DNA of 11,688 nt from a virus: positions 1-11,688 of IMG/VR virus record IMGVR_UViG_3300033149_005670. One strand, written 5' to 3'. This document shows positions 1 through 11,688 of this stretch, one piece after another (the first letter of the stretch is position 1; each line of letters opens with the position of its first letter). The position numbers were made by a program, and so were the translations under genes. The notes beneath the pieces were generated by a model. It made no database searches, had not been told where the DNA came from, and saw nothing but the letters and a program-made list of their open reading frames with translations.

Positions 1-114
1 ACTCAAAACACTGATACTGCTCTTGGCTCTGGATGTGTTGCAGCAGACCATGGGACAGCTTCTACTGACCAAGTAATAAATGTATGTTATGGAACAGGAG
101 ACCCGCCAACTGCA
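1..114. repeat. Terminal overlap, copy 1 (identical to 11575..11688); signature of circular closure
   Basis: Base-by-base comparison gives 114/114 identity with the last 114 nt of the window, so the unit length is 11,574 bp. The repeat lies inside a coding frame. Confidence 0.95.
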
Positions 115-159
115 AACACGACGACGATTGGCACTCTCTTTGTGAAATATACAGCTTAA
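1..159 (+). CDS. C-terminal end of the tail-fibre / receptor-binding-like protein (5'-partial here; continues 11020..11688 across the junction)
   Basis: Frame 1 is open from base 1 to TAA at 157-159 (TQNTDTALGSGCVAADHGTASTDQVINVCYGTGDPPTANTTTIGTLFVKYTA*). It is in phase with the frame-1 reading at 11575..11688. Confidence 0.85.
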   Translation, partial: TQNTDTALGSGCVAADHGTASTDQVINVCYGTGDPPTANTTTIGTLFVKYTA

Positions 160-160
160 A

Positions 161-808
161 ATGGCATTAGTTTTAGGAACAAATTATGGTTTTGTAACTT
201 CTTCTCCTGTGGATGACCCAGCAGCAGGAAATACTACAGCAGACACACGTTCATTAGCAGTTATAGATACAAGTCCAGCAACAGCTGCAAAAATAACAGA
301 AATAGGGTGGTGGGCGAATGCAGACCCCCAGGATACAAATTTTGAAGTAGGTTTATATAGTGATGAAGGAAATGGAGAACCAGAAGCAAGATTATACGTA
401 GATGCTACAAATGCAACAGGGGGCTCTGCGGGATGGAAAAGAGTATCTGTTGATTGGGAAATTAGTCCGTCAACAAATTATTGGTTAGCAATACAAGTTG
501 ATGATGTAGGAATTCCCTCTACAACAGTAGATTATGCGAGTAGTGGTGGTCCAGGTATAGCAAGATTATATTCTCAAACAACACTTTTATCTGATTGGGG
601 AACCAGCACTGCTAAAGACTCTGATGGAATAATTTGTATCTATGCAGTCTGGGAAGCAGGACCAGGACCAGAAGGAACAAACCTACAAATAAACATAGAA
701 GATACATGGAAGGAAGTATCTGCAATTAAAGTAAATGTAGGAGACTCTTGGAAAGATGTAGAATCTGCTAAAATTAATATTGGGGATTCTTGGAAAGATG
801 TCTTTTGA
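161..808 (+). CDS. Beta-rich structural protein, likely fibre/appendage-associated, with C-terminal 14-aa tandem repeats
   Basis: 215-aa ORF whose ATG lies 1 nt after the fibre gene stop. The composition is Gly/Thr/Ser/Asp/Trp-rich, typical of virion surface proteins. I recognise no family. Confidence 0.8.
   Translation: MALVLGTNYGFVTSSPVDDPAAGNTTADTRSLAVIDTSPATAAKITEIGWWANADPQDTNFEVGLYSDEGNGEPEARLYVDATNATGGSAGWKRVSVDWEISPSTNYWLAIQVDDVGIPSTTVDYASSGGPGIARLYSQTTLLSDWGTSTAKDSDGIICIYAVWEAGPGPEGTNLQINIEDTWKEVSAIKVNVGDSWKDVESAKINIGDSWKDVF
689..805 (+). repeat. In-frame tandem repeat, 2.8 copies of a 42-nt / 14-aa unit
   Basis: The peptide reads INIEDTWKEVSAIK / VNVGDSWKDVESAK / INIGDSWKDVF at the C-terminus of the 161..808 product. 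Confidence 0.85.
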
Positions 809-815
809 TATTGTT

Positions 816-833
816 TCTCTCTCTCAGTGGTAA
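816..833. repeat. (TC)5 tract followed by agtggtaa, just after the stop at 808
   Basis: The sequence is tctctctctc + agtggtaa. The same two elements recur at 2129..2159, and agtggtaa recurs at 2224..2231. Confidence 0.6.
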
Positions 834-864
834 GAAAGATATATATACAAGTGATTCTTAAAAA

Positions 865-872
865 TATTAATT
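865..872 (+). promoter_or_regulatory. Possible TATA-like element for the small-gene module
   Basis: tattaatt sits exactly 21 nt upstream of ATG 894, but it is the least canonical case. An alternative TATA (gatatatatac, 838..848) plus an aggag Shine-Dalgarno-like motif at 881..885 would give a leadered mRNA instead. Confidence 0.3.
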
Positions 873-893
873 AAATCCATAGGAGAGTTAAAA

Positions 894-1232
894 ATGGAAT
901 ACAACGAACAACAAGCAACACCTGCACAGATCAAAGCAATTCAAAAGTTGAAGCTACACCCTAGACCCTGGGAGTTGACAAAAAGAGAAGCATGGAAATT
1001 AATGGATGATAACATTAATAAAAATGGAAATGCACCCCAACCATCAGATCAACCATCAAAAGTTCAGCCAAAGGCTTCTACTAAGGAATTTCATTTATCT
1101 GTGGAACAGGTTAATACAAATGCCTTAAATGCAGCTATTGAATTGATGAAAGAGACTACTAATGGTTATCCTTCAGATGAATTAATGGCTACAGCAAAAG
1201 GATTCAAGGAATTTATTGAGAATGGGAACTGA
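894..1232 (+). CDS. Hypothetical protein (112 aa)
   Basis: ORF with an aggag motif 9 nt upstream of the ATG. It is the first gene of a cluster of small Lys/Glu-rich ORFs. No family recognised. Confidence 0.7.
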   Translation: MEYNEQQATPAQIKAIQKLKLHPRPWELTKREAWKLMDDNINKNGNAPQPSDQPSKVQPKASTKEFHLSVEQVNTNALNAAIELMKETTNGYPSDELMATAKGFKEFIENGN

Positions 1233-1410
1233 GAAAACAAGAAGACAAAAAATTGATTGGATGAGGGATATGGCTCGAAGAATCAAGGATGAAGAGGCCC
1301 TCATCCGACATTTTATGCTGGTCTTCGCAACAACTAAACACACGGCACAGGAGATTTATAATATAGTAAAATGGCAGAAGAACACAAAACAGAAGACTCT
1401 GAAGATATGA
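1222..1410 (+). CDS. Hypothetical small basic protein (62 aa from ATG 1222; the track starts it at TTG 1216)
   Basis: ORF overlapping the previous stop by 11 nt. It is basic and helical-looking, so a DNA-binding role is possible. It overlaps the next ORF by 40 nt, so one of the two may be spurious. Confidence 0.45.
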   Translation: MGTEKTRRQKIDWMRDMARRIKDEEALIRHFMLVFATTKHTAQEIYNIVKWQKNTKQKTLKI

Positions 1411-1604
1411 AGTTCTGGAAAGAACTGACAGAAGATACAAAGAGAGTAATAGCTCAAACTGAGAAAAAGCTAAAGTTTTTAGAGGGAATTTTAGAATCTG
1501 CTGAAGCCAAGTATGAAGATGTTAAGTATGTTTGGGAGAATATGATTAATGAACAGGGTAAAAGAATTTTAACTGAAACTGAAAAAGAGGAGAAAGAAAA
1601 ATGA
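1371..1604 (+). CDS. Hypothetical acidic coiled-coil-like protein (77 aa)
   Basis: ATG-initiated ORF. Its stop TGA (1602-1604) overlaps the next ATG (1601-1603) in an ATGA arrangement. Confidence 0.6.
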   Translation: MAEEHKTEDSEDMKFWKELTEDTKRVIAQTEKKLKFLEGILESAEAKYEDVKYVWENMINEQGKRILTETEKEEKEK

Positions 1605-1723
1605 ATAAAGTTTTAAGAAGTGTTAAAAGAAAGATGGTAAAAGGACACGATGATTTTCAGAATTATTATTGTATTCATATAGAAGACTGGAGAAAGATTT
1701 TAAAAAAGGAAAAATCAAAATGA
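1601..1723 (+). CDS. Micro-ORF, 40 aa (MNKVLRSVKRKMVKGHDDFQNYYCIHIEDWRKILKKEKSK); not in the ORF track
   Basis: Hand translation. There are ATGA stop-start overlaps at both ends (1601-1604 and 1720-1723) and a gaggag motif at 1586..1591. Confidence 0.45.
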   Translation: MNKVLRSVKRKMVKGHDDFQNYYCIHIEDWRKILKKEKSK

Positions 1724-1929
1724 AAACAGAAACTGAAAAAGAACTATTCAATAAAAAAATTGATGAGTTAAAAGACAAAATAAATGAGGTGTACCAAGAT
1801 TTAGTTCAATGGTATAATACTCATTATCCTAATTTTGTTTTAAGAAAAAGGGGTTTTGAGAAAATATTAAAGAGAATTGAAAAAATAAACAAAATCTTCA
1901 ACTCTGAAAAAAAAAGAAAATTCAATTAA
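1720..1929 (+). CDS. Hypothetical small Lys/Glu-rich protein (69 aa from ATG 1720; the track starts it at TTG 1669)
   Basis: The ATG at 1720 is coupled to the upstream micro-ORF by an ATGA overlap and has an aagga motif upstream. Confidence 0.6.
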   Translation: MKTETEKELFNKKIDELKDKINEVYQDLVQWYNTHYPNFVLRKRGFEKILKRIEKINKIFNSEKKRKFN

Positions 1930-1967
1930 AAGGATTAGTTGAGGCAGAGTTGATCTTGGAAGAAGAA

Positions 1968-1975
1968 TTTAAAAA
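1968..1975 (+). promoter_or_regulatory. TATA-like box (tttaaaaa), 21 nt upstream of ATG 1997
   Basis: Same 8-mer + 21 nt + ATG geometry as five other sites, with a purine-rich stretch (aagaagaa) immediately upstream. Confidence 0.55.
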
Positions 1976-1996
1976 TGTCAAAGAGGAAGATTTGAA

Positions 1997-2122
1997 ATGG
2001 TGGTAAGCTGTGAATGTGCTGGTTTGCTGTTTTTGGATATATGTGCAGGTATAGGTCTACTTCTAATGATTTATGTAGCTTGGTTAAAATATCAGCAACT
2101 TGTTGTAGAGGGTAAGTTATAA
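1997..2122 (+). CDS. Micro-ORF, 41 aa, single predicted transmembrane helix (MVVSCECAGLLFLDICAGIGLLLMIYVAWLKYQQLVVEGKL); not in the track
   Basis: Hand translation shows a hydrophobic core. The promoter-spacing rule places a leaderless start exactly at this ATG. Confidence 0.45.
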   Translation: MVVSCECAGLLFLDICAGIGLLLMIYVAWLKYQQLVVEGKL

Positions 2123-2128
2123 TTCTGT

Positions 2129-2159
2129 AGTGGGTAATAGTGTGTGTGTCTCTCTCTCT
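2129..2159. repeat. agtgggtaa + (TG)4(TC)5 dinucleotide tract
   Basis: agtgggtaatag tgtgtgtg tctctctctct lies directly after the stop at 2122 and mirrors the elements at 816..833. Confidence 0.7.
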
Positions 2160-2168
2160 AAAAGTGTC

Positions 2169-2211
2169 TAATTAGTATTATTAAATATTAGTATTTTAGA
2201 GTATATTAGTA
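2169..2211. repeat. Three direct copies of a 9-mer (taattagta / atattagta / atattagta), iteron-like
   Basis: The attagta cores are at 2171, 2187 and 2205 (spacing 16 and 18 nt) within a very AT-rich stretch. Confidence 0.6.
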
Positions 2212-2275
2212 GCATATCAAGTAAGTGGTAACACTTTCTAGACTAAGATACGAATAAAAACCTTAGTTTGGCAAT

Positions 2276-2308
2276 ACCTTATTACCTTATTCTTAAGACA
2301 GACAGACA
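2276..2308. repeat. Tandem accttatt x2 followed by (gaca)3
   Basis: accttatt is at 2276..2283 and 2284..2291, and gacagacagaca is at 2297..2308. ccttattct recurs at 2372..2380. Confidence 0.6.
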
Positions 2309-2383
2309 CACTAACTTAGGCCTCTTTCATCCTTCGACTAAACATCAGAATCTTTTTGAGTATAGTTGTATCCTTATTCTACC

Positions 2384-2539
2384 TTAACGACACAGCAAGC
2401 AGACTTCCATAAGCTTGTCATTACAGAAGACTATACGATCACACTTAGAACATCTTTTTGCGACTATAGCTGATGTTGCGATTAAGGGTATTTCTTTGAG
2501 TTCTTTTAAGTTTATCTCATCGTGTAGTCTTTCTCCCAT
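2384..2539 (-). CDS. Micro-gene on the minus strand: 51-aa zinc-ribbon protein (C-x2-C-x13-C-x2-C), a candidate regulator
   Basis: Hand reverse-translation gives MGERLHDEINLKELKEIPLIATSAIVAKRCSKCDRIVFCNDKLMEVCLLCR*. A TATA-like box sits exactly 21 nt upstream on the minus strand. It is the only convincing minus-strand gene. Confidence 0.55.
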   Translation of the reverse strand: MGERLHDEINLKELKEIPLIATSAIVAKRCSKCDRIVFCNDKLMEVCLLCR

Positions 2540-2560
2540 AGATTTCTGTAGAATAGGATG

Positions 2561-2568
2561 TATATAAA
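2561..2568 (-). promoter_or_regulatory. TATA-like box (tttatata on the minus strand), 21 nt upstream of the zinc-ribbon ATG
   Basis: + strand tatataaa at 2561..2568, then 21 nt (2540..2560), then cat (= ATG) at 2537..2539. Confidence 0.55.
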
Positions 2569-2625
2569 AGTTGTTTACTACTCATGAGTTTTTCTTTACT
2601 TTTAGGAACATCACTTATCAATAGT

Positions 2626-2633
2626 TTTATATA
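2626..2633 (+). promoter_or_regulatory. TATA-like box (tttatata) with no downstream ORF; candidate promoter of a non-coding transcript
   Basis: It is divergent from the zinc-ribbon promoter. The 21-nt rule predicts a start at about G2655, and no ORF longer than about 25 codons follows on the + strand before 3188. Confidence 0.45.
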
Positions 2634-2645
2634 TTTTAGAAACTT

Positions 2646-2666
2646 CAGACTTGCGTAGCAAGTCTG
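2646..2666. promoter_or_regulatory. Perfect 9-bp inverted repeat with a 3-nt centre (cagacttgc gta gcaagtctg); candidate operator
   Basis: The reverse complement of 2646..2654 equals 2658..2666. The centre (2656) coincides with the start predicted from the 2626 TATA box. The half-site cagactt also occurs at 2403..2409. Confidence 0.5.
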
Positions 2667-2751
2667 TCTACCTAAAACATAAAAAGACTATTTAGTTCTG
2701 CTCCTAAAAGTAACAAAACAAACCTTTCTTGACTTACACCCCCCCTTTTCT

Positions 2752-2823
2752 TTAGTGAACTTGGCCTTCTTGGCCAAGTGGGCTCTATAGAGCCCATCCC
2801 TTCAAGAAGAAGGGATTCACTAA
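2752..2823 (+). other. Gap-free four-way junction (cloverleaf-like but not tRNA); could form in RNA or as extruded DNA
   Basis: The closing stem is 2752..2759 with 2816..2823 (8 bp). Hairpin 1 is 2760..2766 / 2772..2778 (loop ttctt). Hairpin 2 is 2779..2785 / 2790..2796 (loop tata). Hairpin 3 is 2797..2803 / 2809..2815 (loop aagaa). All pairs are Watson-Crick and no base is unpaired between helices. Confidence 0.75.
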
Positions 2824-2836
2824 CCCAGGACTTCTT

Positions 2837-2873
2837 CTTCTGGCCTTAGTGAGCCTCTGCTTCTGGCCTTAGT
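2837..2873 (+). repeat. 14-nt direct repeat cttctggccttagt, two copies 23 nt apart
   Basis: Copies are at 2837..2850 and 2860..2873. The uggccu core of either copy can pair with aggcca at 2908..2913. Confidence 0.7.
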
Positions 2874-3030
2874 AGTTATCCGCTACACCGGGTAACTCAA
2901 GATGAATAGGCCATTTTGTAAAGCTGTTCCATAAGAAATAGAGCATAGGTAACCTCCATTTCCAGTGGAACTCAGAATATTAGCGAGAGTTGTCACTACA
3001 CAATAGTGATTTGCTTAACCCTCCAGAAAC

Positions 3031-3057
3031 TTTTTAAAATTTTTAATATTTTAAAAA
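3031..3057 (+). terminator. Oligo-T runs within an AT-only inverted repeat (tttttaaaa ... ttttaaaaa)
   Basis: There is a T5 run at 3031..3035 and a T4 run at 3041..3044. 3031..3039 is the reverse complement of 3049..3057. This could be an oligo-T terminator or an easily melted duplex. Confidence 0.3.
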
Positions 3058-3158
3058 TCTCATTTCACTTATTATATAGAGTGAGGTGGATAGTTCATCT
3101 TGATATCCAAAACATCACTCAACTTTTTAATTTTTTTAAAAAAAGAAAAAACAAAAAG

Positions 3159-3166
3159 TATTTAAA
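3159..3166 (+). promoter_or_regulatory. TATA-like box (tatttaaa), 21 nt upstream of ATG 3188; promoter of the packaging/structural operon
   Basis: The 8-mer and spacing are identical to the site at 7982..7989, with an A-rich stretch (acaaaaag) upstream. Confidence 0.6.
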
Positions 3167-3187
3167 GAAGTTCGCATAACTCTTTTA

Positions 3188-3397
3188 ATGGGAATCAGGA
3201 AAAAGATGACTGCTGTCATAGGAAACAAGAATCAATCACGATGGAACACCATAAAGCAAAACTCAGAAGCGATTTTGGAACAGGCAAATATGCAGGTAAT
3301 GCTTCAAACAGAGATTCTAAAGATAGCAAAGAAGAAGTTAAAAGGAACAAAGGAGATAGATATATCAAACTTGATAAGTGGCAAGAAGAAGTCTTAA
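3188..3397 (+). CDS. Small basic protein (69 aa), overlapping the terminase N-terminus in another frame
   Basis: The ATG is exactly at the leaderless position predicted by the promoter rule. It overlaps 3241..3397 of the terminase ORF, and its function is unknown. Confidence 0.4.
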   Translation: MGIRKKMTAVIGNKNQSRWNTIKQNSEAILEQANMQVMLQTEILKIAKKKLKGTKEIDISNLISGKKKS

Positions 3398-4674
3398 ATG
3401 CAAAAGGACATTTCTTATTGTGCACTGGTAGACAAGTAGGTAAAACAACTATTTTTGCGATTAAAGCAGCTGAAAGAATGATATCTCAAAAGGGGTGCAG
3501 AATTATAGCTGTTTCTCTTACAGAAGATCAGGCCTTTCTTATGAAAACCATGGTTCAGGATTACCTGGAAAAGAAGTATAAATCTTATTTGAAAGTTAAG
3601 AAAGAGCATAAACCAACAAAAAACAGAATTATTCTAAATAATGGAAGTTCATACATCGTTAGACCTGTTGGAAATACTGGAGATGCAGTTAGAGGGTTTA
3701 CAGGCGATGTTTTAATTATAGACGAGGCGAGTAGAATGCCTGAAAGTGTTTTTATAGCTTCAAAACCAACATTACTAACAACTGGTGGAGATATTTGGAT
3801 GTGCTCGACTCCTTTTGGAAAGAAAGGCTACTTTTACGAATCCTGGCTTAATAAAAACAAAAGATTCAAAGTTTTTCACATTTCAAGCGAGAAAGTCATC
3901 CAGGATAGAGAGATAAGCGAAAGTTGGAGTGAGGAAAAAAGAGAATCTGCCATAAGAATGCTTGAAGAAGAGAAAAAAGACATGTCTACACTTCAATATG
4001 CCCAGGAATATTTAGGAATGTTTACAGAAGATCTAAGGCAGTTCTTTCCTGATGAGTTAATAGAACAGGTCTGCACAGGCAAGAGAAATCAGCCTTTTAA
4101 TTTAGCTCCTAAGTTCTATATGGGAGTGGATATTGCAAGATTAGGAGAGGATAAAAGTGTCTTTGCAATAGTTAACAAAATACGAGATAATCTATTCCAT
4201 CAGGTAGAAAATATAGTAACATCAAAGAAAAGAACTACTGAAACCTTTGATAAGATAGTTGATTTAGAGCAGATGTGGAAGTTTAAACAAATAGGAATAG
4301 ATGCAGGTTCAGGAAGTTTAGGTGTTGGGGTGTTTGACTTCCTTTTAAGAGAACCAATTATCAGGAAAAAGGTTATAGACCTGGATAATGCAAGAATAAT
4401 GAAAGATAGCAGAGGGGAAAAAACAGGAAGATGGTTTAAAGAAGCTTCTTATGCTAATATGTTAATGTTGATGGAAAAAGGAAGAGTTAGACTTCTTGAT
4501 GATGATGAGATAAAACTCTCTTTGAAATCAGTTCAATATGAATACTCTATTAAGCCAGGACAGAAGTCTAAGATGATAATATTTGGAAGAAATCATGATA
4601 TTGTGGAAGCAATTCAAAGAGCACTATGGTTAGCAAATCAGAAAACTATAAATACACAGATAAGTTACATTTAA
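3241..4674 (+). CDS. terL: Terminase large subunit (packaging ATPase plus nuclease)
   Basis: Walker A is CTGRQVGKTT and Walker B is DVLIIDEAS, followed by a CSTPFG coupling motif. The C-terminal RNase H-like nuclease has acidic motifs (MGVDIARLGEDKSV, IGIDAGSGSLG, HDIVEAIQ). Length is 477 aa. Confidence 0.93.
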   Translation: MEHHKAKLRSDFGTGKYAGNASNRDSKDSKEEVKRNKGDRYIKLDKWQEEVLNAKGHFLLCTGRQVGKTTIFAIKAAERMISQKGCRIIAVSLTEDQAFLMKTMVQDYLEKKYKSYLKVKKEHKPTKNRIILNNGSSYIVRPVGNTGDAVRGFTGDVLIIDEASRMPESVFIASKPTLLTTGGDIWMCSTPFGKKGYFYESWLNKNKRFKVFHISSEKVIQDREISESWSEEKRESAIRMLEEEKKDMSTLQYAQEYLGMFTEDLRQFFPDELIEQVCTGKRNQPFNLAPKFYMGVDIARLGEDKSVFAIVNKIRDNLFHQVENIVTSKKRTTETFDKIVDLEQMWKFKQIGIDAGSGSLGVGVFDFLLREPIIRKKVIDLDNARIMKDSRGEKTGRWFKEASYANMLMLMEKGRVRLLDDDEIKLSLKSVQYEYSIKPGQKSKMIIFGRNHDIVEAIQRALWLANQKTINTQISYI

Positions 4675-4675
4675 T

Positions 4676-5026
4676 ATGGCAGAAACTATGTGCACCTCAG
4701 GACAAGCAATAGCAAGAGCAGGAGCTCATGCAAATTCTTCTGTTATAATTGATAAAACTATTATGGATGCATGGAGTAATGATGCTGAGAGACAGATAGA
4801 AGCTGAGACTGGATTGTCCATAGTATCTAATTTTGAAAATTATCAATTAAGTGGAGCTGCCTCAGCTGCTTGTGCTGCATTATGGGCTAATAACATTATA
4901 GCTTATGATACAACAGGGTATTTATCAAGAGAAGCTGACACTCTTTTAAATGTAAATGATGCAGTATATAAAGCTTGCATTAAGAACATGGATAAAAACA
5001 AAACTAAATTAACTTCACCAATATAA
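4676..5026 (+). CDS. Hypothetical virion protein (116 aa, helical); possibly a head-tail adaptor
   Basis: It is tightly coupled to terL, starting 1 nt after its stop. Its size and Ala-rich helical character resemble gp6-like connectors, but this is a weak resemblance only. Confidence 0.75.
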   Translation: MAETMCTSGQAIARAGAHANSSVIIDKTIMDAWSNDAERQIEAETGLSIVSNFENYQLSGAASAACAALWANNIIAYDTTGYLSREADTLLNVNDAVYKACIKNMDKNKTKLTSPI

Positions 5027-5027
5027 A

Positions 5028-5675
5028 ATGTTTCAAAAACCTTATCAAACTCAGAATGTTCCTCTTATTAATTATAACTTTACAGATACAATTACAGGAG
5101 TTTCTTATAAAACATTCTATGCAGGAGATGCTTCAGGAACTAAATTTTTAATATCTTCTCCAACTGCTTCTTCATGGGGGGGAATAACTCAGGTAGGAAA
5201 CAGCATATATCAAGGTAGTTTAGTTTTAGCAGGAACTTATAACTTTGATACAACTTTTAATATTCCTCAAATAATAGAAGGGGATGCAGTAGCACAATTT
5301 ACATTAGGCCAGTATTGGGAAGGAAATGCAACAGGAACAAGAAGACAAGCAAGAATATCTTTGCAGAAAAATACAGTTGAATTAATAAGTGGAGCAACTA
5401 CTGCAACAGTAGCAGCTGATGGAAGTGCAGGTGATACTTTATCAGCACCAGAAGCGATTATATTACCAGTTCCAAAAACATCTTTCGCAATAGGAGATAC
5501 TTTAAGAATGGAAGTTAAGATATATGGTCAGGGTCAGGGAAGTCCAGGCCAAGATATAAAACCAGGAATAGGAACAGATCCAAATGGTGCAAAGGATGAA
5601 GGAACTAAGAAAGTTATAGAAGATACAGACTCAACAATATTTAAACTACACTTGCCATTTAGGGCAGATATATAA
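5028..5675 (+). CDS. Hypothetical beta-rich structural protein (215 aa)
   Basis: The ORF is coupled on both sides (a TAATG overlap with the portal gene) and has a Gly/Thr/Ser-rich composition. It contains a G7 tract at 5176..5182. Confidence 0.8.
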   Translation: MFQKPYQTQNVPLINYNFTDTITGVSYKTFYAGDASGTKFLISSPTASSWGGITQVGNSIYQGSLVLAGTYNFDTTFNIPQIIEGDAVAQFTLGQYWEGNATGTRRQARISLQKNTVELISGATTATVAADGSAGDTLSAPEAIILPVPKTSFAIGDTLRMEVKIYGQGQGSPGQDIKPGIGTDPNGAKDEGTKKVIEDTDSTIFKLHLPFRADI

Positions 5676-6742
5676 TGGCGAACTTTGACATAAGACAAAC
5701 AACAACAACAGGACTCAAAACAGGAGTTCCAAACTTCTCTATAGATGCAACTCAAGTGTCAGGAATACAAGATGCTCCGGAAACAAAGCAGACATTTGAA
5801 GAATTTAACAATAGATTTACTTACTATGACACAATTCCAGAACTAAAAAAAGCCATTCAAGTCTATGCAACATGGGTTTTAGGACAGGGTTATGATTCTC
5901 CTCAAAGTGTAATTTTAGATAATATAACAGGTAGTGGAGAGGACTCTTTTACATCTATTCTATGGAACTTGCTTGTTACAAAGAAGATTAATGGAGATGC
6001 TTTTGCTGAAATTGTGAGAAATGATAAAGGAACTTTGATTAATCTTAAACCTTTAAATCCTCAAAGGATGGCTGTAATCTTCAGCAAGAAAGGAGTTATA
6101 GATAGATATGAGTATCAGGGAAGAAAAGAACCATTTACACCTGATAAGATATTTCACTTAGTAAATGATAGAATAGCAGATTCTACTCATGGAGATTCTG
6201 TAATTGATGCTTTGAAATGGTTAATTGATGCAAGGCAGGAAGCTATGAGAGACTGGAGAAGAATATCGCATAGGAGCACAATAAGAGTGCTGATAGTTGA
6301 TGAGGATGATCCTGCTAAATTAACAACTTTGAAAACTCAGTATAAAGATGCAATTAAAAATGGAGAGGTTTTGATTCTGCCAGGGAAACCAGGCGAGAAG
6401 GCTTTTCAGGACTTGCAGCTTCCTCCTGTAGAGGCCTTCTTGGCCTGGATTAGATATTTAGAAAATGCATTTTATAAAGCAGTTGGAACTCCAAAGACCT
6501 TAGCAGGAGATGCAGAAGGTATTCCTGAATCAGGGGGAAAGATGGTAGTTCTTACTCATGAACCTACTTATGTAAGAGAAGTTAATGATTTAGAAAATGA
6601 TATTTGGAATCAGTTAGCTATTAGAATTACATTTAAGAGACAGGCTTCACTTAAAGAGAATGTTCGGGAACAAGAAGGAAAGAGTATAAATCAAACTCAG
6701 GCAGTTCAGCCAAGTGATACAAATATAAGAGATATTAAATAA
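5675..6742 (+). CDS. Portal protein (small, 355 aa)
   Basis: Its position near terL and its portal-family-like motifs support the call (NGDAFAEIVRN..G.LINLKPLNP, HGDSVIDAL, and a helical PPVEAFLAWIRYLENAFYKAVGTP segment). Confidence 0.8.
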   Translation: MANFDIRQTTTTGLKTGVPNFSIDATQVSGIQDAPETKQTFEEFNNRFTYYDTIPELKKAIQVYATWVLGQGYDSPQSVILDNITGSGEDSFTSILWNLLVTKKINGDAFAEIVRNDKGTLINLKPLNPQRMAVIFSKKGVIDRYEYQGRKEPFTPDKIFHLVNDRIADSTHGDSVIDALKWLIDARQEAMRDWRRISHRSTIRVLIVDEDDPAKLTTLKTQYKDAIKNGEVLILPGKPGEKAFQDLQLPPVEAFLAWIRYLENAFYKAVGTPKTLAGDAEGIPESGGKMVVLTHEPTYVREVNDLENDIWNQLAIRITFKRQASLKENVREQEGKSINQTQAVQPSDTNIRDIK

Positions 6743-6924
6743 TGACAACAAAAACAAAACAACCTAAAACAGACTGGAGAGTTTTATGCATAGGTATATT
6801 ATGCCTTACAGCTTTAGAGCTATTTGCATTAAACAAAGGTATTAATGGAGTTCTATTGACTACTATTGTAGGAATAATAGCTTTAGCAATAGGTGTATCA
6901 ATTAAAAACCCATTAGTAGAGTAA
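6742..6924 (+). CDS. Small membrane protein (60 aa, two predicted TM helices)
   Basis: It has a TAATG overlap with the portal stop and two hydrophobic stretches (VLCIGILCLTALELFAL, VLLTTIVGIIALAIGV). Confidence 0.6.
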   Translation: MTTKTKQPKTDWRVLCIGILCLTALELFALNKGINGVLLTTIVGIIALAIGVSIKNPLVE

Positions 6925-6925
6925 A

Positions 6926-7921
6926 ATGACAACTTATACAAGGATGAAAAAAGCAACTTCTTTTCAGGAAAAGGAGAGGCTCAGGAAAAAGCACGAGGAA
7001 GAACTGGCTAAAAAGAGAGAAGCAAAAGCTCAGAAACTTGCAGAAGCTCAGGAAATAGGCAGAACAGCTCCAAGTTTTTCTGAGAAGGAACTGGGCAAAG
7101 AGGGGTATAAACAAGCTAAACTTGCTGCACAAGCACAAGTTCTTAAATCACAAGCACAGGCTACAAGAGAAGCAGAAGAAGCAAGAAGAAAAGAAGCAAA
7201 GGCTTTTTTAGAAGAAAGAGGGTTTTTTGAAGAAGCAGCTCCTGAAAGAGTAAGTTTAGCTCCTGAGGAAAGATTAGGGGGACAAATTCCTGTTGCAGGT
7301 GGAATATTAGGAGCAAGAAAAAGTTTAGTTCCAGAGCAAGGCACAATATTAAATTTAGCTAAAGATAAAGGATGGATAAAAGGAGAAGTAAAAGGGGAAG
7401 GTATTTTAATAGAGACTCCTGAGACTTTAAGAGAACAGGCTTTAAATGAAATACAAAAGGAAGTTATTAAAGAAGGTTTATCAGCAGGAGAAAGATTTGG
7501 TTCTTTAGTTGAGGGGATTCCTGTTATAGGTTCTCTTGCCAGTAAATATGCAACAGGATTAATAGAAGATCCTAAAGGAAATATAGAAACTATTGTTTCT
7601 GAAATAGCATCAGAAAGAGAAAGAGCATCTGTTTTAGCTGAAAAGGTAGCTACAGGAAAAATAAGCCCTTATGTTTTCTATGAGGAAATAGATGTTATGG
7701 AAGAAAATATAGCTGCATTAGAGCAAAGAATAAAACTTTTAATAAATTCTTCTCCTGCTTTGAGAGTAAATGCTGATAAAGTTCATAGAATAGAAGAACA
7801 GATTTTAAGGGCAAAGGAAAGAATATATATGGCCAAACAACTTGCAGCAGGGGGTATGGTAGTAGAGCCCACTGACACAAGTATATATTTTGAATTGGAG
7901 AAATTAAAAAGTGAAAGCTAA
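6926..7921 (+). CDS. Coiled-coil, Ala/Glu/Lys-rich protein (331 aa); scaffold or internal virion protein candidate
   Basis: A long ORF with charged heptad-like segments that sits between the portal and capsid modules. Confidence 0.8.
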   Translation: MTTYTRMKKATSFQEKERLRKKHEEELAKKREAKAQKLAEAQEIGRTAPSFSEKELGKEGYKQAKLAAQAQVLKSQAQATREAEEARRKEAKAFLEERGFFEEAAPERVSLAPEERLGGQIPVAGGILGARKSLVPEQGTILNLAKDKGWIKGEVKGEGILIETPETLREQALNEIQKEVIKEGLSAGERFGSLVEGIPVIGSLASKYATGLIEDPKGNIETIVSEIASERERASVLAEKVATGKISPYVFYEEIDVMEENIAALEQRIKLLINSSPALRVNADKVHRIEEQILRAKERIYMAKQLAAGGMVVEPTDTSIYFELEKLKSES

Positions 7922-7981
7922 AGAGTTTCCTTGGTGGTTTTGGATATTAATAGTTATTGCATTACTTTCATAATAGAAACA

Positions 7982-7989
7982 TATTTAAA
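7982..7989 (+). promoter_or_regulatory. TATA-like box (tatttaaa), 21 nt upstream of ATG 8011
   Basis: Exact geometry match, with agaaaca upstream. Confidence 0.6.
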
Positions 7990-8010
7990 TCTATTTCTAT
8001 TTATTTTTGA

Positions 8011-8277
8011 ATGGAAGAAGAAACAGAAGCTAAGCAAACAAAAGAAGAAGAGAAGAAGTCTTTTTTGAAAGAGGTTAAGGAAGAGAGAATAGCTCTTGAA
8101 GCTATTAGAGATGCGAATAAGCAGATTGTAGAAGAGCTGAAAGAACTAAGAGCTAAAGAGATAATTTCAGGAGATACATCTGCAGGACAGCCTAAAGAAA
8201 AACCAAAAGAAGAAACTCCTGAGGAGTATTCTAATAAATTAATTTCAGGAAAAATTAAAAATCCTGAACTTGAATAA
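8011..8277 (+). CDS. Acidic coiled-coil protein (88 aa); scaffolding-protein candidate
   Basis: It has a leaderless ATG, a highly charged helical sequence, and the classical position upstream of the capsid genes. Confidence 0.7.
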   Translation: MEEETEAKQTKEEEKKSFLKEVKEERIALEAIRDANKQIVEELKELRAKEIISGDTSAGQPKEKPKEETPEEYSNKLISGKIKNPELE

Positions 8278-8715
8278 ATGCACCTGGATTTTATTGCAGA
8301 AGCTATAGAAGAAGAACTTAATGAGTTTGAAAAGTGGTGGTCTACAAGAGTTTATCCTTTGCCTGTAACTAAGCCAGATGGAACTATTGAATCAAAACCA
8401 ATTCAAATTGGACTTAGAGCCAGGAGATATTATAGTTTAATCTTTCCAAAAGAAGCTCTTGATGTTGTTTTAAATACATTAAATCCTGAGAATTGTGTTG
8501 TTTCGATGGTAGATGGAAAAGGAACTAAGAAATTTAGGACTATTTTAAAATTGATGAGGAAAATTCTAAAATTAAAACCCATACCTAAAGCTGACAAAGA
8601 CAAAGGATTTCTTCCTGTGAGGCCTTTTAAGAACACAAGAATAGTTGGTTTAGGTATTAGAGAAGATAAAAACATAGTTACAGAAAAAGATGGCTCAACA
8701 CATGAAGGTCTATAA
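8278..8715 (+). CDS. Hypothetical protein (145 aa)
   Basis: The ATG immediately follows the upstream TAA. No recognisable motifs. Confidence 0.7.
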   Translation: MHLDFIAEAIEEELNEFEKWWSTRVYPLPVTKPDGTIESKPIQIGLRARRYYSLIFPKEALDVVLNTLNPENCVVSMVDGKGTKKFRTILKLMRKILKLKPIPKADKDKGFLPVRPFKNTRIVGLGIREDKNIVTEKDGSTHEGL

Positions 8716-8727
8716 AGTTCAGAAAGA

Positions 8728-8735
8728 TTTAAATA
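8728..8735 (+). promoter_or_regulatory. TATA-like box (tttaaata), 21 nt upstream of ATG 8757
   Basis: Exact geometry match. The 21-nt spacer gtttattctttacaatatttt closely resembles the spacer upstream of ATG 10114. Confidence 0.6.
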
Positions 8736-8756
8736 GTTTATTCTTTACAATATTTT

Positions 8757-9155
8757 ATGGCAAATGAAGCAGTGCTGGTTGACAGAATAGCAGATCCTAT
8801 TAATTTTGGTTGTGCTGATATAGCTATGGAGAAGGGAACTATTGTTTGCTTGTCAGGAGCAAGAGATGTTAAACCTACTTCTGCAGATAATGATATAGTA
8901 ATAGGTATTACTGCAAGAGAAAAGATTGCAGGAGATGGAAGATTATCTGTGCCTGTATTTGTTCAGGGAGTTTTTAGATGTCATAGTGATAGCACAATAG
9001 GAATAGGAACTCCTGTTGTAATTAGTGGTGCTAATACAATTAAAGCCCTTACTACTCTTGATGATGAAAAAGGTTATGTTCTTGGAAGAGCATTAGAAGC
9101 AGCAGGTTCTGCTGCTGATGATATTGAAGTCTTATTGGGACATGGTGGTGCATAA
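8757..9155 (+). CDS. DUF2190-like head decoration / capsid-associated protein (132 aa)
   Basis: It lies directly upstream of the major capsid gene. It has the Gly-rich beta pattern typical of this family (KGTIVCLSG, VIGITA, VFVQGVF, IGIGTPVVISG, GYVLGRALE). Confidence 0.55.
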   Translation: MANEAVLVDRIADPINFGCADIAMEKGTIVCLSGARDVKPTSADNDIVIGITAREKIAGDGRLSVPVFVQGVFRCHSDSTIGIGTPVVISGANTIKALTTLDDEKGYVLGRALEAAGSAADDIEVLLGHGGA

Positions 9156-9232
9156 TGGAAGAAGAAAATAAACAACCTGAGGATTTTGTTGAGGAAGTTA
9201 ATAAAGAATCCGAAGAAAATAAAGAAGAATAA
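9155..9232 (+). CDS. Micro-ORF, 25 aa, strongly acidic (MEEENKQPEDFVEEVNKESEENKEE); not in the track
   Basis: TAATG overlaps at both ends (9153-9157 and 9230-9234) bridge the decoration and capsid genes exactly. Confidence 0.4.
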   Translation: MEEENKQPEDFVEEVNKESEENKEE

Positions 9233-10083
9233 TGGCAGATAGAGTAGAAATGGCTGAAATAAGAGGATTAGATGTAGACAAAGCTGTGAAAGGCTTTGCT
9301 TTAACAAACTATATCTTTAAGAATCATGTAACTGTTAGCTCTATGAGTGGAGATAGTGTTAGATGGTATCAGGAAACTGCTGATGATTTGACTGCTACTG
9401 CACCTTCTAAAGTTGCAGATATTGCACCTTTAGCTACATTTACAAACTTAGAGCCAAGTTGGACTCGTCAGACTTCTTATCCAAAGAAATATGGAGCAAG
9501 AGGATTTATTTCACTTGAAGATTTAAAGTCTGCTGATATTGATATTTTAGCAAGAACTCTTTTAAGACTTACAAGAGGAGTAATTAAGCAGGTTGATTCA
9601 AGAATTTATAATATTATTAAAGGTGTTACTCTAACAGGGGCAGCTTTAGGAACTGGATGGGATGACACAACTAATGGAAAACCTTTAGTAGATATTCTCT
9701 CAGGGCAACAGGCTATTGCTGAACATGATTATGATATATCTTCAGGAGAGATATGGATGACTCCTAAGAACCACAGAGACTTAAAACAATATTTAATAGA
9801 TACCAAAGGGACTTACTTTACTCAATATGCAAGTGAGAAACTTAAGACTGGTGTAGTTATGAATGTGTTGGGATGGGATGTTGTAGTTTCAAATAATGTA
9901 ACTGCTGATGAGGTATGGATGGGACTGCCTAAGGTTGCATGCACTTGGAAAACTTATACAGACACAACTGCTAATGTAACTGATAAGCCAGGATTAGGTA
10001 AAGAGATAGTTGTATGGGAAATGGGAGAAGCTATTTTAACAGACCCTTATGCAGGTTACCTTATAACTGATGTAGATACATAA
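9232..10083 (+). CDS. Major capsid protein, HK97 fold (283 aa)
   Basis: Its size and synteny (scaffold, decoration, then capsid) support the call. So does a spine-helix-like segment (SLEDLKSADIDILARTLLRLTRGVIKQVDSRIYNII) and a C-terminal beta-rich region. Confidence 0.8.
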   Translation: MADRVEMAEIRGLDVDKAVKGFALTNYIFKNHVTVSSMSGDSVRWYQETADDLTATAPSKVADIAPLATFTNLEPSWTRQTSYPKKYGARGFISLEDLKSADIDILARTLLRLTRGVIKQVDSRIYNIIKGVTLTGAALGTGWDDTTNGKPLVDILSGQQAIAEHDYDISSGEIWMTPKNHRDLKQYLIDTKGTYFTQYASEKLKTGVVMNVLGWDVVVSNNVTADEVWMGLPKVACTWKTYTDTTANVTDKPGLGKEIVVWEMGEAILTDPYAGYLITDVDT

Positions 10084-10084
10084 A

Positions 10085-10092
10085 TATAAAAA
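10085..10092 (+). promoter_or_regulatory. TATA-like box (tataaaaa), 21 nt upstream of ATG 10114
   Basis: Exact geometry match, with the spacer ctttatttctttgaatatttt. Confidence 0.55.
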
Positions 10093-10113
10093 CTTTATTT
10101 CTTTGAATATTTT

Positions 10114-10248
10114 ATGACAATAGGACCAGATACAAAAGGATGTATGGCTGTTGATAAGGATTATCCTTATGAAGAAGGTTTGACAGCTGAAACAACTAAA
10201 CAAACAGGAAACCCTAATTTAGAAGAAGAGGGTTCTAAATATTTATAA
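10114..10248 (+). CDS. Micro-ORF, 44 aa (MTIGPDTKGCMAVDKDYPYEEGLTAETTKQTGNPNLEEEGSKYL); not in the track
   Basis: It has a leaderless ATG by the promoter rule, and its stop TAA (10246-10248) overlaps the fibre ATG (10248). Confidence 0.45.
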   Translation: MTIGPDTKGCMAVDKDYPYEEGLTAETTKQTGNPNLEEEGSKYL

Positions 10249-11042
10249 TGGGTGGCGAAGGAAGTGGAAGAAGACCTGACCCAGTAAAAGCTTTAATAGC
10301 TCAAAGAGCTCCACAAATGCCTGTTGCTGGAAGTGATTATATTATTCCAAACTTATCAGGAGATTTATCAAAAGGAAAAGTTATAGATACTCCTGTTAAT
10401 CCTAAAGACCCTGTTAACAAAGAATATGTTGATGCTGCTGGCGGAGGGGATTCTCCGTGGAGCACATCAGGCTTAAATATTTATTATAATGATGGAAATG
10501 TAGGAATAGGAATAACGGAGCCAAGTGCGAAGTTGGAGGTGGTAGAAACTGGAGTAACTAAAGATAGTTGGAAACTTAGTAACCCTCATAAAGCAATTGG
10601 TATTCAAGGGGATGGTGGTGCTTATTTCTCTGGAAGAGATGTAACAAATGATATAGAATTTGCAATGGGGACATCAGTCGTTGGTCGTAGTTTTGCTGGG
10701 TCTCTTACTAATCACGGATTTGATTTGAGGACTAATAATACAATCAGAATGATCATAGACAACAACGGAGACGTCGGTATTGGGACTGATAGTCCTTCCG
10801 AAAAATTACATATTTCAAATGGCGTGGCTATATACGATAGCGATAGAAGTATAACAGACCTTCACCATTTGGTTGATAAAAAATATGTTGATGAAGCAGT
10901 AACAGCGTTGGGTGCAAGGTATTATATGCTTAATGCTGATTCTGGAGAGGCAGATTACAAAAATTGTTCAACCACTCCATCGGCTGGCGGAGAGCAAAAT
11001 GTAAGCAAAGCAGATTTAACCCAACTGGCGAATTTATGCTGA
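10248..11042 (+). CDS. Tail-fibre / receptor-binding-like protein, N-terminal reading frame (264 aa)
   Basis: It carries fibre-type motifs: NKEYVD and DKKYVD, plus two G(N/D)VGIG-x4-5-P-S-x-KL modules (GNVGIGITEPSAKLEV, GDVGIGTDSPSEKLHI). It ends at TGA 11040-11042, while homologous coding sequence continues in another frame. Confidence 0.8.
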   Translation: MGGEGSGRRPDPVKALIAQRAPQMPVAGSDYIIPNLSGDLSKGKVIDTPVNPKDPVNKEYVDAAGGGDSPWSTSGLNIYYNDGNVGIGITEPSAKLEVVETGVTKDSWKLSNPHKAIGIQGDGGAYFSGRDVTNDIEFAMGTSVVGRSFAGSLTNHGFDLRTNNTIRMIIDNNGDVGIGTDSPSEKLHISNGVAIYDSDRSITDLHHLVDKKYVDEAVTALGARYYMLNADSGEADYKNCSTTPSAGGEQNVSKADLTQLANLC

Positions 11043-11688
11043 AAAAACTGCGGGCACACAAACACTGAGATTATATTGGAAACTGGTTGAAAGAAAAAGT
11101 GATGATTCAGAAGTTGTTATCGGAACCTCAGTTGTTAGTAACAAGATAACAACTGGCAAAAATTCATATATTATTCCTTTAACTTTATCAGCAGACTACG
11201 ATATAGCGAGCGATAGTTATGTTGTTGGGAAGATTTATGCTGATGTATCTGGGAGCGGCTTAGCACCAAGCGTTACTTTATACTATGAAGGAGATTCTCA
11301 CTCTCATTGGGAAATCCCAGTTAACACAGAAATACTTAATAATTTTTATGTTAATGTAGATGGCGACACAATGACTGGTAATCTTACAATGCCCGCTGAG
11401 TCTTTTGTTGGTCCAAGTTCTACTGCTGGGATATATTTTAAAGACGGCGATGTCGGCATCGGGACAACTAACCCATCGGAGAAATTGGATGTAGATGGAA
11501 ACATTGCTGTTAGTGGGACAGTTGATGGAATAGATATTGCAACTGATGTGACAGCGAACACAAATGCAAGGCATACTCAAAACACTGATACTGCTCTTGG
11601 CTCTGGATGTGTTGCAGCAGACCATGGGACAGCTTCTACTGACCAAGTAATAAATGTATGTTATGGAACAGGAGACCCGCCAACTGCA
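11020..11688 (+). CDS. Tail-fibre-like protein, C-terminal reading frame (+1 relative to 10248..11042; no start codon; continues to 159 after circular closure)
   Basis: Frame 1 is open from 11020 to the window end, with no ATG, GTG or TTG until 11371. It encodes VDGDTMTGNLTM and a third GDVGIGTTNPSEKLDV module. Confidence 0.75.
11575..11688. repeat. Terminal overlap, copy 2 (identical to 1..114)
   Basis: Same comparison. The overlap may extend further but is cut by the window edge. Confidence 0.95.

Follow-up and report, generated by a model that had tools for sequence, protein, structure and literature searches.

A miniature HK97-lineage virus genome with ORB-like sites and a conserved cloverleaf upstream of its terminase gene

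How can a genome of less than 12 kb that encodes a virus head and no recognisable replication gene be copied? The question is raised by IMG/VR record IMGVR_UViG_3300033149_005670, of which we analysed the whole stretch of 11,688 nucleotides (nt), hereafter called the window. A previous sequence-only reading had taken it for a complete miniature HK97-lineage genome and had left three explanations side by side: a reduced virus that depends fully on host replication, a capsid-encoding satellite, or a lineage whose replication proteins are too divergent to recognise. The explanation that we favour, at a probability of roughly 0.55, develops the first of these, and is that the window holds the complete genome of a miniature, autonomous archaeal virus of the HK97 lineage, which would be replicated by the host Orc1/Cdc6 proteins from an origin made of origin recognition boxes (ORBs). 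A lack of replication genes throughout the family and the presence of origin motifs are what speak for it, and it accords with all that was observed.

A self-closing genome and its family

Bases 1–114 of the window are identical to bases 11575–11688, which gives a unit of 11,574 bp plus a 114-bp overlap, and an open reading frame (ORF), the second part of the fibre gene, runs across the contig junction from 11020 to 159. Because an ORF crosses the junction, the window ends are not physical termini but come from the assembly, as the overlap of a sequence that is circular or circularly permuted. All long ORFs lie on the plus strand. Searches with the large terminase subunit (TerL) and the capsid protein in IMG/VR, JGI metagenomes, GTDB genomes and a set of 5.8 billion proteins returned hundreds of relatives, with contigs topping out near 12 kb; 410 homologues of the window capsid protein were found. 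Ten relatives have a terminal overlap of their own (L053, 11,748 bp; L062, 11,998; L064, 11,017; L095, 11,686; L098, 11,194; L128, 11,958; L173, 11,324; L183, 11,948; L207, 12,287; L212, 12,001), and contig L081 begins a second lap after 11,721 nt, as an eleventh self-closing relative. The contig starts of these relatives fall at differing genome positions. The window is not a fragment, with at least 11 relatives closing on themselves at 11.0–12.3 kb in the same gene order. The overlap, the wrapping ORF and these relatives bear out the claim of a complete miniature genome, and we hold it all but certain that the virus family is real and that the window contains the genome of one of its members in full.

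The gene order kept in the family is a small gene, TerL, a 116-aa protein, a jelly-roll protein, the portal, a small membrane protein, a protein of ~340 aa, an acidic protein, a 145-aa protein, the cement protein, the capsid protein and the fibres. Relatives came from marine water, viromes, Tara samples, anoxic lakes, groundwater and sediments, virus-fraction samples included. The window capsid protein had no match among 50,697 GenBank phage records, and the nearest cultured TerL is that of the haloarchaeal Halogranum tailed virus 1 (HGTV-1), at 25% identity (7e-23). In the literature searched we found no description of this miniature family, nor of ORB sites in viruses that lack replication genes; one paper reports ORBs to be absent in an Aeropyrum virus. 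We conclude that the family consists of undescribed, globally distributed miniature (11.0–12.3 kb) HK97-lineage viruses. The earlier placement of the window at the lower end of the known size range, around 11–12 kb, was correct, since the smallest isolated tailed phages measure 11.6–11.7 kb; a T=3 tailed-phage head has a predicted mean genome length of 11.78 kb (PMC7762592), and the 11,574-bp genome fits such a head.

Profile searches identified the HK97-lineage (Duplodnaviria, Caudoviricetes-type) hallmarks, and the Pfam and PHROG matches confirmed the TerL, portal, decoration-like, HK97-type capsid and fibre genes that had been called from the sequence. TerL, with an ATPase and an RNase H-like nuclease part, lies at 3241–4674 on the plus strand, like the other head genes (Pfam Terminase_6N, 1.6e-14; phrog_2, 2e-39 over residues 41–457); its nuclease part gave a weak match to a T7-type RNase H-like domain. 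The portal gene follows at 5675–6742 (PF04860, 7.6e-15; phrog_12, 7e-16), the gene for the capsid cement or decoration protein at 8757–9155 (PF09956, 3.5e-6), preceded at 23 nt by a TATA-like heptamer (8727–8733), and that for a predicted HK97-fold major capsid protein of 283 aa at 9232–10083 (PF25209, 3.3e-10; phrog_1650, 1e-19).

In the same searches the window proteins matched no replication, integration or lysis family, which is the outcome that inspection of the letters had given. The enzymes whose detection would have spoken against a fully host-dependent genome (polymerase, primase, Rep, integrase) had no family match in the window, and none of them, nor a helicase or Orc1 family, was matched by 135 accessory ORFs (≥78 aa, from 18 relatives, searched against Pfam); these accessory ORFs matched only CcdA-like, HNH, DNA methylase, laminin-G, beta-helix and similar families. 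As far as profile searches go, the absence of recognisable replication and integration genes is family-wide. The explanation by divergent replication proteins is weakened further: in the structure prediction and Foldseek comparison that had been proposed, the product of 5028–5675, the one unassigned protein for which a confident model was obtained, came out as a jelly-roll and not as an enzyme, and the other unassigned proteins are short or coiled-coil. The single-sequence model of the 4676–5026 product, with a predicted local distance difference test score (pLDDT) of 50, was too poor and was not used. Genetic codes 4, 15 and 25 were tried on the ORF-free gap at 1930–3240, and no ORF opened.

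ORB-like sites and archaeal promoter geometry

The non-coding DNA of the window amounts to the stated 1 kb or so and lies at ~2123–2383 and 2540–3187, the latter stretch (~0.65 kb) just before TerL. Its weight had been missed; it turned out to be the most informative part of the genome. From 5' to 3' its elements are the promoter of a minus-strand ORF, a long imperfect hairpin (2591–2718), a run of seven C, a cloverleaf (2752–2823) and two direct repeats (2837–2873), followed by a palindrome (2875–2896), a TTCC...GAA pair (2927–2972), a small hairpin, a region of A/T motifs (3027–3158) and a TATA box (3160–3166).

The pair at 2927–2972 consists of two inverted ORB-like sites, TTCCATAAGAA (2927–2937) and TTCCAGTGGAACT (2960–2972). 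The second is an exact copy of the 13-bp Pyrococcus mini-ORB TTCCAGTGGAACT, and on the minus strand it reads GTTCCACTGGAAAT-GGA-GGTTA. In the Pyrococcus origin this 13-bp element has TTCC and GAA as invariant cores (PMC1904270), and the euryarchaeal ORB consensus is GTTCCAGTGGAAAC-AAA----GGGGG (PMC1868953). The oriented sites of the family read GTTCCAYWGGAAAY-GAA-GGTTA and agree with this cellular consensus at 12 of 14 positions. Within the window alone the loose ORB pattern is not significant (4 matches against 1.9 expected). Across the family the core TTCCNNNGGAA is enriched 29-fold in the 1.1 kb upstream of TerL, which make up 10% of the sequence counted (23 sites against 7 elsewhere, P=1.8e-17). 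In IMG/VR the inverted pair turned up in 16 contigs out of 2.9 million, every one of them with TerL, portal or capsid genes of the family. Relatives with the motif have 1–5 sites each, adjoined by G/C runs and A/T-rich tracts. In the window two such tracts (~3027–3058 and ~3123–3158) lie 55–190 nt to one side of the pair; the first starts with a family-conserved C-run followed by CAGNCAAA, five to nine T and an A-run. The tracts are candidates for an unwinding element, a terminator or a packaging site.

These motifs make it somewhat likely that the ORB sites act as a replication origin. With such an origin, fired through host Orc1/Cdc6, the lack of replication genes in a genome of 11.6 kb would be accounted for. 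In the mechanism that we propose the genome would be copied as a small minichromosome: host Orc1/Cdc6 would bind the ORB sites at 2927–2972, the A/T-rich tracts beside them would unwind, and an MCM-based host replisome would copy the circle. The host machinery would also transcribe the genes from TATA-box promoters, mostly as leaderless mRNAs, and the hairpin-dense region upstream of the packaging operon would probably hold the packaging start site of the terminase as well.

The signals of an archaeal host had been overlooked in the sequence-only reading. We scanned for the TATA-like heptamer AT[AT]TAAA and recorded its distance to the ATG that starts an ORF. On the plus strand of the window, 5 of 11 such sites end 21–23 nt before the ATG of an ORF (starts at 1997, 3188, 8011, 8757 and 10114), where 0.16 are expected at random. 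When 95 loci are taken together, distances of 21 and 23 nt stand out sharply, with 27 and 43 cases against a background of ~3. A leaderless archaeal transcript begins ~26 nt downstream of the centre of its TATA box. The spacing thus has the geometry of an archaeal TATA box with a leaderless mRNA, which bacterial promoters do not fit. Together with the ORB motif and with HGTV-1 as the nearest cultured source of TerL, it makes an archaeal host quite probable. A 46-nt direct repeat, 74% identical between 8727–8772 and 10084–10129, covers the promoter and the start of both the cement gene and a gene for 44 aa; duplication of a promoter with a leaderless start, or convergence on one, is its probable origin. 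The label Heimdallarchaeaceae, under which the exact window proteins stand in two metagenome-assembled genome (MAG) records at NCBI, is derived from binning and weak, and we did not rely on it.

Several observations weigh against the favoured explanation. The window has only two ORB-like sites, 33 nt apart, which face each other and do not flank an A/T-rich tract; a single Pyrococcus mini-ORB is insufficient for Cdc6 binding in vivo (PMC1904270). There is no adjacent orc1/cdc6 gene, and no Orc1/Cdc6 or AAA+ initiator was found in the window or the 135 accessory ORFs. Several relatives (L026, L053, L064) have other repeats in place of the ORB motif. The origin function is read from motifs. Contig ends pile up in the ORB region, so some of the conserved sequence may be a packaging site or a physical end. 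Relatives have been binned into at least 10 unrelated phyla (Methanomicrobia, Pacearchaeota, Heimdallarchaeaceae, Saccharibacteria, Levyibacteriota, Dojkabacteria, Bacteroidota, Richelia, Actinomycetota and others), labels that we take for binning noise because the phyla are unrelated and the contigs are always free and at most 12 kb long; no host link was obtained through CRISPR or a provirus. Lastly, no adaptor, nozzle, tail tube, sheath or tape measure was recognised in the window, either in Pfam and PHROG or when the unassigned families were compared with the PDB, so that the profile searches upheld what had been said of the tube, sheath, tape-measure and nozzle genes. So far as the tail is concerned, the autonomy of the virion is presumed.

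Packaging, satellite and RNA readings of the same evidence

A rather unlikely explanation, which survives best among the rivals, is that the non-coding region serves mainly packaging and regulation, as a cos or pac site with terminase-binding repeats, that the ORB-like motif is bound by a virus protein, and that a small virus protein initiates replication. The location favours it, directly upstream of an operon of a small gene and TerL, since lambda-like and HK97-like phages have their cos sites in that place. The first gene of this operon is a conserved ORF of 69 aa (3188–3397, plus strand) with a TATA-like heptamer (3160–3166) 21 nt upstream. It had been omitted from the earlier gene list, occupies the position of a small terminase and overlaps the annotated TerL start by 157 nt in another frame. 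Its identity to L020 is 69%, against 38% for the overlapping TerL frame, and the alignment of relatives to the window TerL starts only at residue 42; weaker matches to the 69-aa ORF were found in L029, L006, L053 and L081. It had no Pfam match, no family match identifies its function, and no small-terminase gene was recognised among the window proteins by profile search, as had been stated. Besides the annotated start, the TerL frame offers only a TTG at 3418 as a start candidate. With TerL in the −1 frame of the 69-aa ORF, a fusion of the two through frameshifting is conceivable.

The packaging explanation also gains from a small HNH-type zinc-finger endonuclease encoded directly upstream of TerL in many relatives (for example L062 8547–8840, L064 5173–5523, L078 4129–4413 and L081 3677–3973), although the window is without one, and from the way in which contigs break. 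Among contigs found through TerL, 17 of 26 end 100–1,300 nt upstream of the gene and 4 of 26 as close downstream (P=5e-4), and the breaks of TerL-bearing relatives often fall 30–130 nt from the ORB pair (L001, L003, L005, L013, L014, L089–L092, L096, L099 and others). The cluster may reflect physical genome ends in the control region, or a region that is hard to assemble. Conserved repeats in the region point the same way: by our reading of the sequence, two direct copies of CTTCTGGCCTTAGT stand at 2837–2850 and 2860–2873, with an analogous pair of different sequence in L006, and the palindrome GTTATCCG-ctacac-CGGGTAAC at 2875–2896 is conserved in sequence in L001/L020, L006, L026, L074 and L078. 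As a signature of the family the palindrome GTTAYYCGG..CCGRRTAAC was rejected; it is enriched and not specific, 32 of 119 IMG/VR contigs among the matches listed belonging to the family. What counts against the packaging explanation is that a virus-specific site would match the ORB consensus at 12 of 14 positions and reproduce the Pyrococcus mini-ORB exactly by coincidence, and that, besides the 69-aa protein, no small protein is common to all lineages with the motif. Packaging and origin functions are moreover not exclusive, and the explanation overlaps with that of an ORB origin.

The second rival is a capsid-forming satellite that would build its own heads and package itself, and take tails, replication or egress from a larger helper virus. 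In its favour are the lack of replication and lysis genes and of any recognisable tail tube, sheath, tape-measure, nozzle or adaptor gene. So is a comparison of two relatives: L019, the end of a 35,193-nt contig (ENA contig ERZ27249171 k141_36388), and L020, of 11,496 nt, are 99.87% identical over 8,181 nt, spanning the head module and the first ~580 nt of the fibre gene, then diverge completely within that gene. Beyond this point L019 has other genes, one of which encodes a laminin-G protein of 1090 aa, and at ~16,790–16,960 it has another ORB-like cluster. A chimera joined at the conserved fibre N-terminus would account for the 35-kb contig, as would a larger relative or a helper virus. Satellites of the P4, PICI (phage-inducible chromosomal island), cf-PICI (capsid-forming PICI) and PLE (PICI-like element) types integrate and encode an integrase and a replication initiator. 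The usual marks of a satellite are thus missing here: there is no integrase; TerL, portal, capsid and fibres are the element's own; relatives occur in virus-fraction samples; and a fibre-tip-like jelly-roll protein would be as needless to a head-only satellite as the fibres. A search for integrated copies in GTDB (185,579 species genomes) found no integrated copy of a close relative: capsid patterns found nothing, and TerL patterns found free short contigs and a distant (29%) Methanomicrobia TerL. All close relatives are on free contigs of at most 12.9 kb. The distant TerL relative sits at 10001–10843 of L103, inside a 158-kb contig of Methanomicrobia archaeon JdFR-19, and may belong to a provirus of a related lineage. 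We therefore regard the satellite explanation as quite unlikely, and autonomy over satellite status as fairly probable.

Just as improbable in our judgement is that a structured non-coding RNA of ~450 nt (~2591–3040) fills the region, with the cloverleaf as one of its domains, and acts in packaging like the phi29 packaging RNA (pRNA) or in replication priming like ColE1 RNA II. Folding is what suggests it. Fold z-scores are near 0 along the genome except at 2600–3100, where the plus strand gives −7.9, −4.5, −3.4 and −3.6 and the minus strand comparable values; for 2130–3060 as a whole they are −12.2 (plus) and −8.9 (minus). The hairpin-dense region begins with the long imperfect inverted repeat at 2591–2718, with an inner perfect hairpin at ~2648–2668 (−7.9 on the plus and −6.1 on the minus strand for 2601–2800). 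After a C7 run (2739–2745) comes the cloverleaf of 72 nt (2752–2823), a four-way junction in which a 7-bp outer stem encloses three hairpins (8-5-8, 6-4-6 and 8-5-8) without linkers; the hairpin loops in the window are TTCTT, TATA and AAGAA.

All loci were scanned for the structure, and a covariance model based on three copies was then applied. The cloverleaf was thereby located in seven lineages, always upstream of TerL (the window, L006, L062, L074, L164, L205 and L227); three of the copies had no part in building the model, which found them. An alignment of six copies has 92.6% of its cells paired and both sides changed in 28 of 34 pairs, a level that none of 500 shuffles attains; sliding the partners cuts pairing to 30–47%. 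Loops 1 and 3 are complementary to each other at five of five bases in the window, L062, L074 and L227 and at four of five in L006 and L164, and loop 2 reads TANA across copies. Compensatory variation and complementary loops would suit an RNA, as would the T-runs downstream at 3031–3044. Yet the cloverleaf is the same on both strands, down to a G.U closing pair in hairpin 1 and an A.C in hairpin 3, and 159 stems from 30 loci hold 26 G.T and 21 A.C mismatches (P=0.56). With this lack of strand asymmetry we rejected a structured RNA on the gene strand, which a few G.U pairs had suggested. The sole nearby TATA box suits the minus-strand ORF, no tRNA or tmRNA was found in the window and no Rfam 15 match at E≤1 on either strand, and the cloverleaf occurs in only seven lineages, its model being absent from most further relatives and the structure not universal in the family. 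The cloverleaf would be explained at least as well by an element that works as DNA, in single strands that are extruded where replication or packaging starts.

One speculative reading, which we rate as doubtful as the RNA, is that the cloverleaf is a new structured nucleic-acid device that replaces proteins, either as single-stranded DNA that loads the host replisome at the ORB origin or as an oligomerising RNA or DNA scaffold of the packaging motor in the manner of the phi29 pRNA. If this device and the ORB sites worked as described, the family would be the first shown to replicate purely as a minichromosome dependent on host Orc1/Cdc6.

A phage of small-genome bacteria such as Patescibacteria, which the bins of relatives in Saccharibacteria, Levyibacteriota, Dojkabacteria and other bacterial MAGs, the low G+C content and the habitats would fit, is very improbable, as those labels span archaea and unrelated bacteria on free short contigs, the 21–23-nt spacing is incompatible with bacterial −10 or −35 geometry, and both the ORB motif and the nearest cultured TerL are archaeal.

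Known counterparts and the remaining genes

A near likeness in genome plan is found in the verdandiviruses, Asgard-associated tailed viruses with genomes of up to ~20 kb (Medvedeva et al., bioRxiv 10.1101/2021.07.29.453957). By the part of their description compared here, both groups, which metagenomes alone have revealed, have small circular genomes of the HK97 lineage, a gene for a cement (capsid-stabilisation) protein immediately before that for the capsid, arrays of tiny genes, and no replication or transcription genes, with a predicted full reliance on the host. The verdandiviruses differ in having a siphovirus-type major tail protein, a tape measure and a baseplate hub, families that were not matched in the window, and no ORB origin is reported in that part of the description. 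In size the counterparts are Mycoplasma virus P1 (11.7 kb) and Salmonella phage astrithr (11.6 kb), at a predicted T=3 capacity of 11.8 kb (PMC7762592). With these the family may have a short-tailed virion plan in common. Both are bacterial viruses, the window family being probably archaeal, and P1 and phi29-like small podoviruses encode their own protein-primed DNA polymerase, whereas the window family has no polymerase gene.

Archaeal oriC regions share with the window the ORB core, inverted copies, G/C runs with A/T-rich tracts, and an intergenic place between divergent promoters; they differ in that orc1/cdc6 is adjacent and the sites flank the A/T tract, while the window has few sites and a GGTTA element instead of the G-string. 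Satellites of the cf-PICI and P4 types are likewise small (~10–15 kb), and in cf-PICIs, too, all head and packaging genes are present while tail genes cannot be recognised. These satellites reside in bacterial chromosomes with an integrase, regulators and a replication initiator or primase, in contrast with the window family, which has no integrase or initiator, encodes fibres and yielded no integrated copy of a close relative. Multi-branch elements kept by compensatory change act in packaging or replication in the phi29 pRNA, the parvovirus inverted terminal repeat (ITR) hairpins and the enterovirus 5' cloverleaf. By analogy, the window cloverleaf may be likened to the pRNA for its two mutually complementary loops and to the ITRs for its location at a probable origin or packaging region; it differs from all three in being a perfect, strand-symmetric four-way junction with three hairpins and no sequence or Rfam likeness.

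Were the favoured explanation true, the family would mark the lower size limit of HK97-lineage viruses in archaea, and carrying host origin recognition sites would be one way for a double-stranded DNA virus to dispense with replication genes. To our knowledge, even the smallest archaeal tailed viruses described so far have genomes about twice as large as these 11–12 kb. The family is a natural candidate for the predicted and so far unseen T=3 HK97 capsid. The ORB pair is a cheap and specific DNA signature (16 of 16 IMG/VR hits in the family) with which further viruses of this kind could be retrieved and ascribed to archaea. For uncultured archaeal groups, a genome this small could be handy as a shuttle vector or minimal-virion model, and the cloverleaf is a well-supported conserved structure without a known counterpart.

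Apart from the packaging operon with its 69-aa protein and TerL, the portal, the cement and the capsid protein, the genome encodes scaffold-like proteins, fibre and jelly-roll appendages and a few very small proteins; unless stated otherwise, their genes lie on the plus strand. The fibre gene is in two parts. The first (10248–11042, 264 aa, with GNVGIGT...KLEV repeats) matches tail-fibre PHROGs (phrog_18345, 5.9e-8), and the second, in the +1 frame (11020–11688 and on to 159), matches PHROGs of tails and fibres (4e-4). Its first 117 codons contain neither ATG nor GTG nor TTG, which suggests a programmed +1 frameshift, or a one-base indel or assembly error near 11020–11040. Next to it, 161–808 encodes 215 aa with C-terminal GDSWKDV repeats and no Pfam match; its homologues stand directly after the capsid gene in L053 and L006, and it is probably a fibre or vertex-associated structural protein.

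Three proteins without a family match follow: one of 112 aa (894–1232), with a homologue in L053 (1.4e-11), a charged helical one of 77 aa (1371–1604), with a weak homologue in L064, and a basic one of ~70 aa (1720–1929, its ORF open from 1669). To the earlier gene list we added, besides the 69-aa ORF, three small ORFs. That at 1997–2122 encodes a 41-aa membrane peptide, 23 nt behind a TATA-like heptamer (1967–1973), and a similar 'SCEC...' peptide was read by eye from the DNA of L020; that at 10114–10248 encodes 44 aa between capsid and fibre, with a heptamer (10084–10090) 23 nt upstream and a 43-aa gene at the same place in L019, L020 and L021. Both are probably real. The third, on the minus strand (2384–2539), encodes a 51-aa CxxC...CxxC zinc ribbon, and TTTATATA (2562–2569) ends 21 nt before its ATG on its own strand; with no homologue found among relatives and no Pfam match, it is tentatively a candidate regulator. 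At the same position, L006 (2813–3202, minus strand) and two other relatives encode CcdA-like ribbon-helix-helix proteins divergent from the packaging operon, that of L006 also with a cysteine-rich C-terminal part; these are probably regulators. The non-coding stretch beyond 2122 starts with a (GT)5(CT)5 microsatellite, gtgtgtgtgtctctctctct, at 2140–2160, and GT or CA runs occur near the same region in relatives, such as L053 (~10135), L004 and L064.

Between portal and cement genes lie four more. The 60-aa membrane protein after the portal (6742–6924) has tblastn matches in L001, L009, L013 and L014. The next, of 331 aa (6926–7921), has an N-terminal coiled coil and Gly-rich hydrophobic stretches, belongs to a positional family of ~290–380 aa found after the portal in 17 loci, and is a candidate scaffold or internal/ejection protein. 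With the profile of this family (alignment A5), the MIT domain of Sulfolobus Vps4/CdvC (PDB 2w2u and 2v6y; E 7e-4, 22.7 bits) came up as a marginal match and a crAss-like cargo protein as a weak one (E 0.12); the MIT match, which found no support in Pfam, is an unconfirmed lead that, if real, would hint at an interaction with host ESCRT-III. Three other conserved families of unassigned function gave nothing solid in profile searches against PDB sequences. A scaffold candidate, the acidic helical protein of 88 aa at 8011–8277, stands 21 nt behind a TATA-like heptamer (7983–7989), and the conserved 145-aa protein at 8278–8715 has homologues in L020, L006, L053 and L087 and no PDB match.

The interval between TerL and portal holds two genes. 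The first (4676–5026) encodes a 116-aa protein conserved in 12 loci, without a PDB or Pfam match; from its size and position one might guess at a head-tail adaptor. The second (5028–5675) encodes the all-beta jelly-roll protein of 215 aa, modelled with AlphaFold from 19 homologues at a pLDDT of 82 and a predicted template modelling (TM) score of 0.80. In Foldseek comparisons with the PDB and BFVD the model resembles fibre-tip, C1q/TNF-like and birnavirus VP2 domains (TM scores of ~0.4–0.5), and the protein probably serves as an appendage at the surface or for receptor binding. The two laps of L081 (1–5366 and 11722–17087) are 99.6% identical over 5,366 nt, to just beyond TerL. The 18-kb contig then runs on into a second strain, whose portal gene is only 81% identical and in which the cassette between TerL and portal is swapped (5367–6206 against 17088–17977), as expected for a host-recognition gene.

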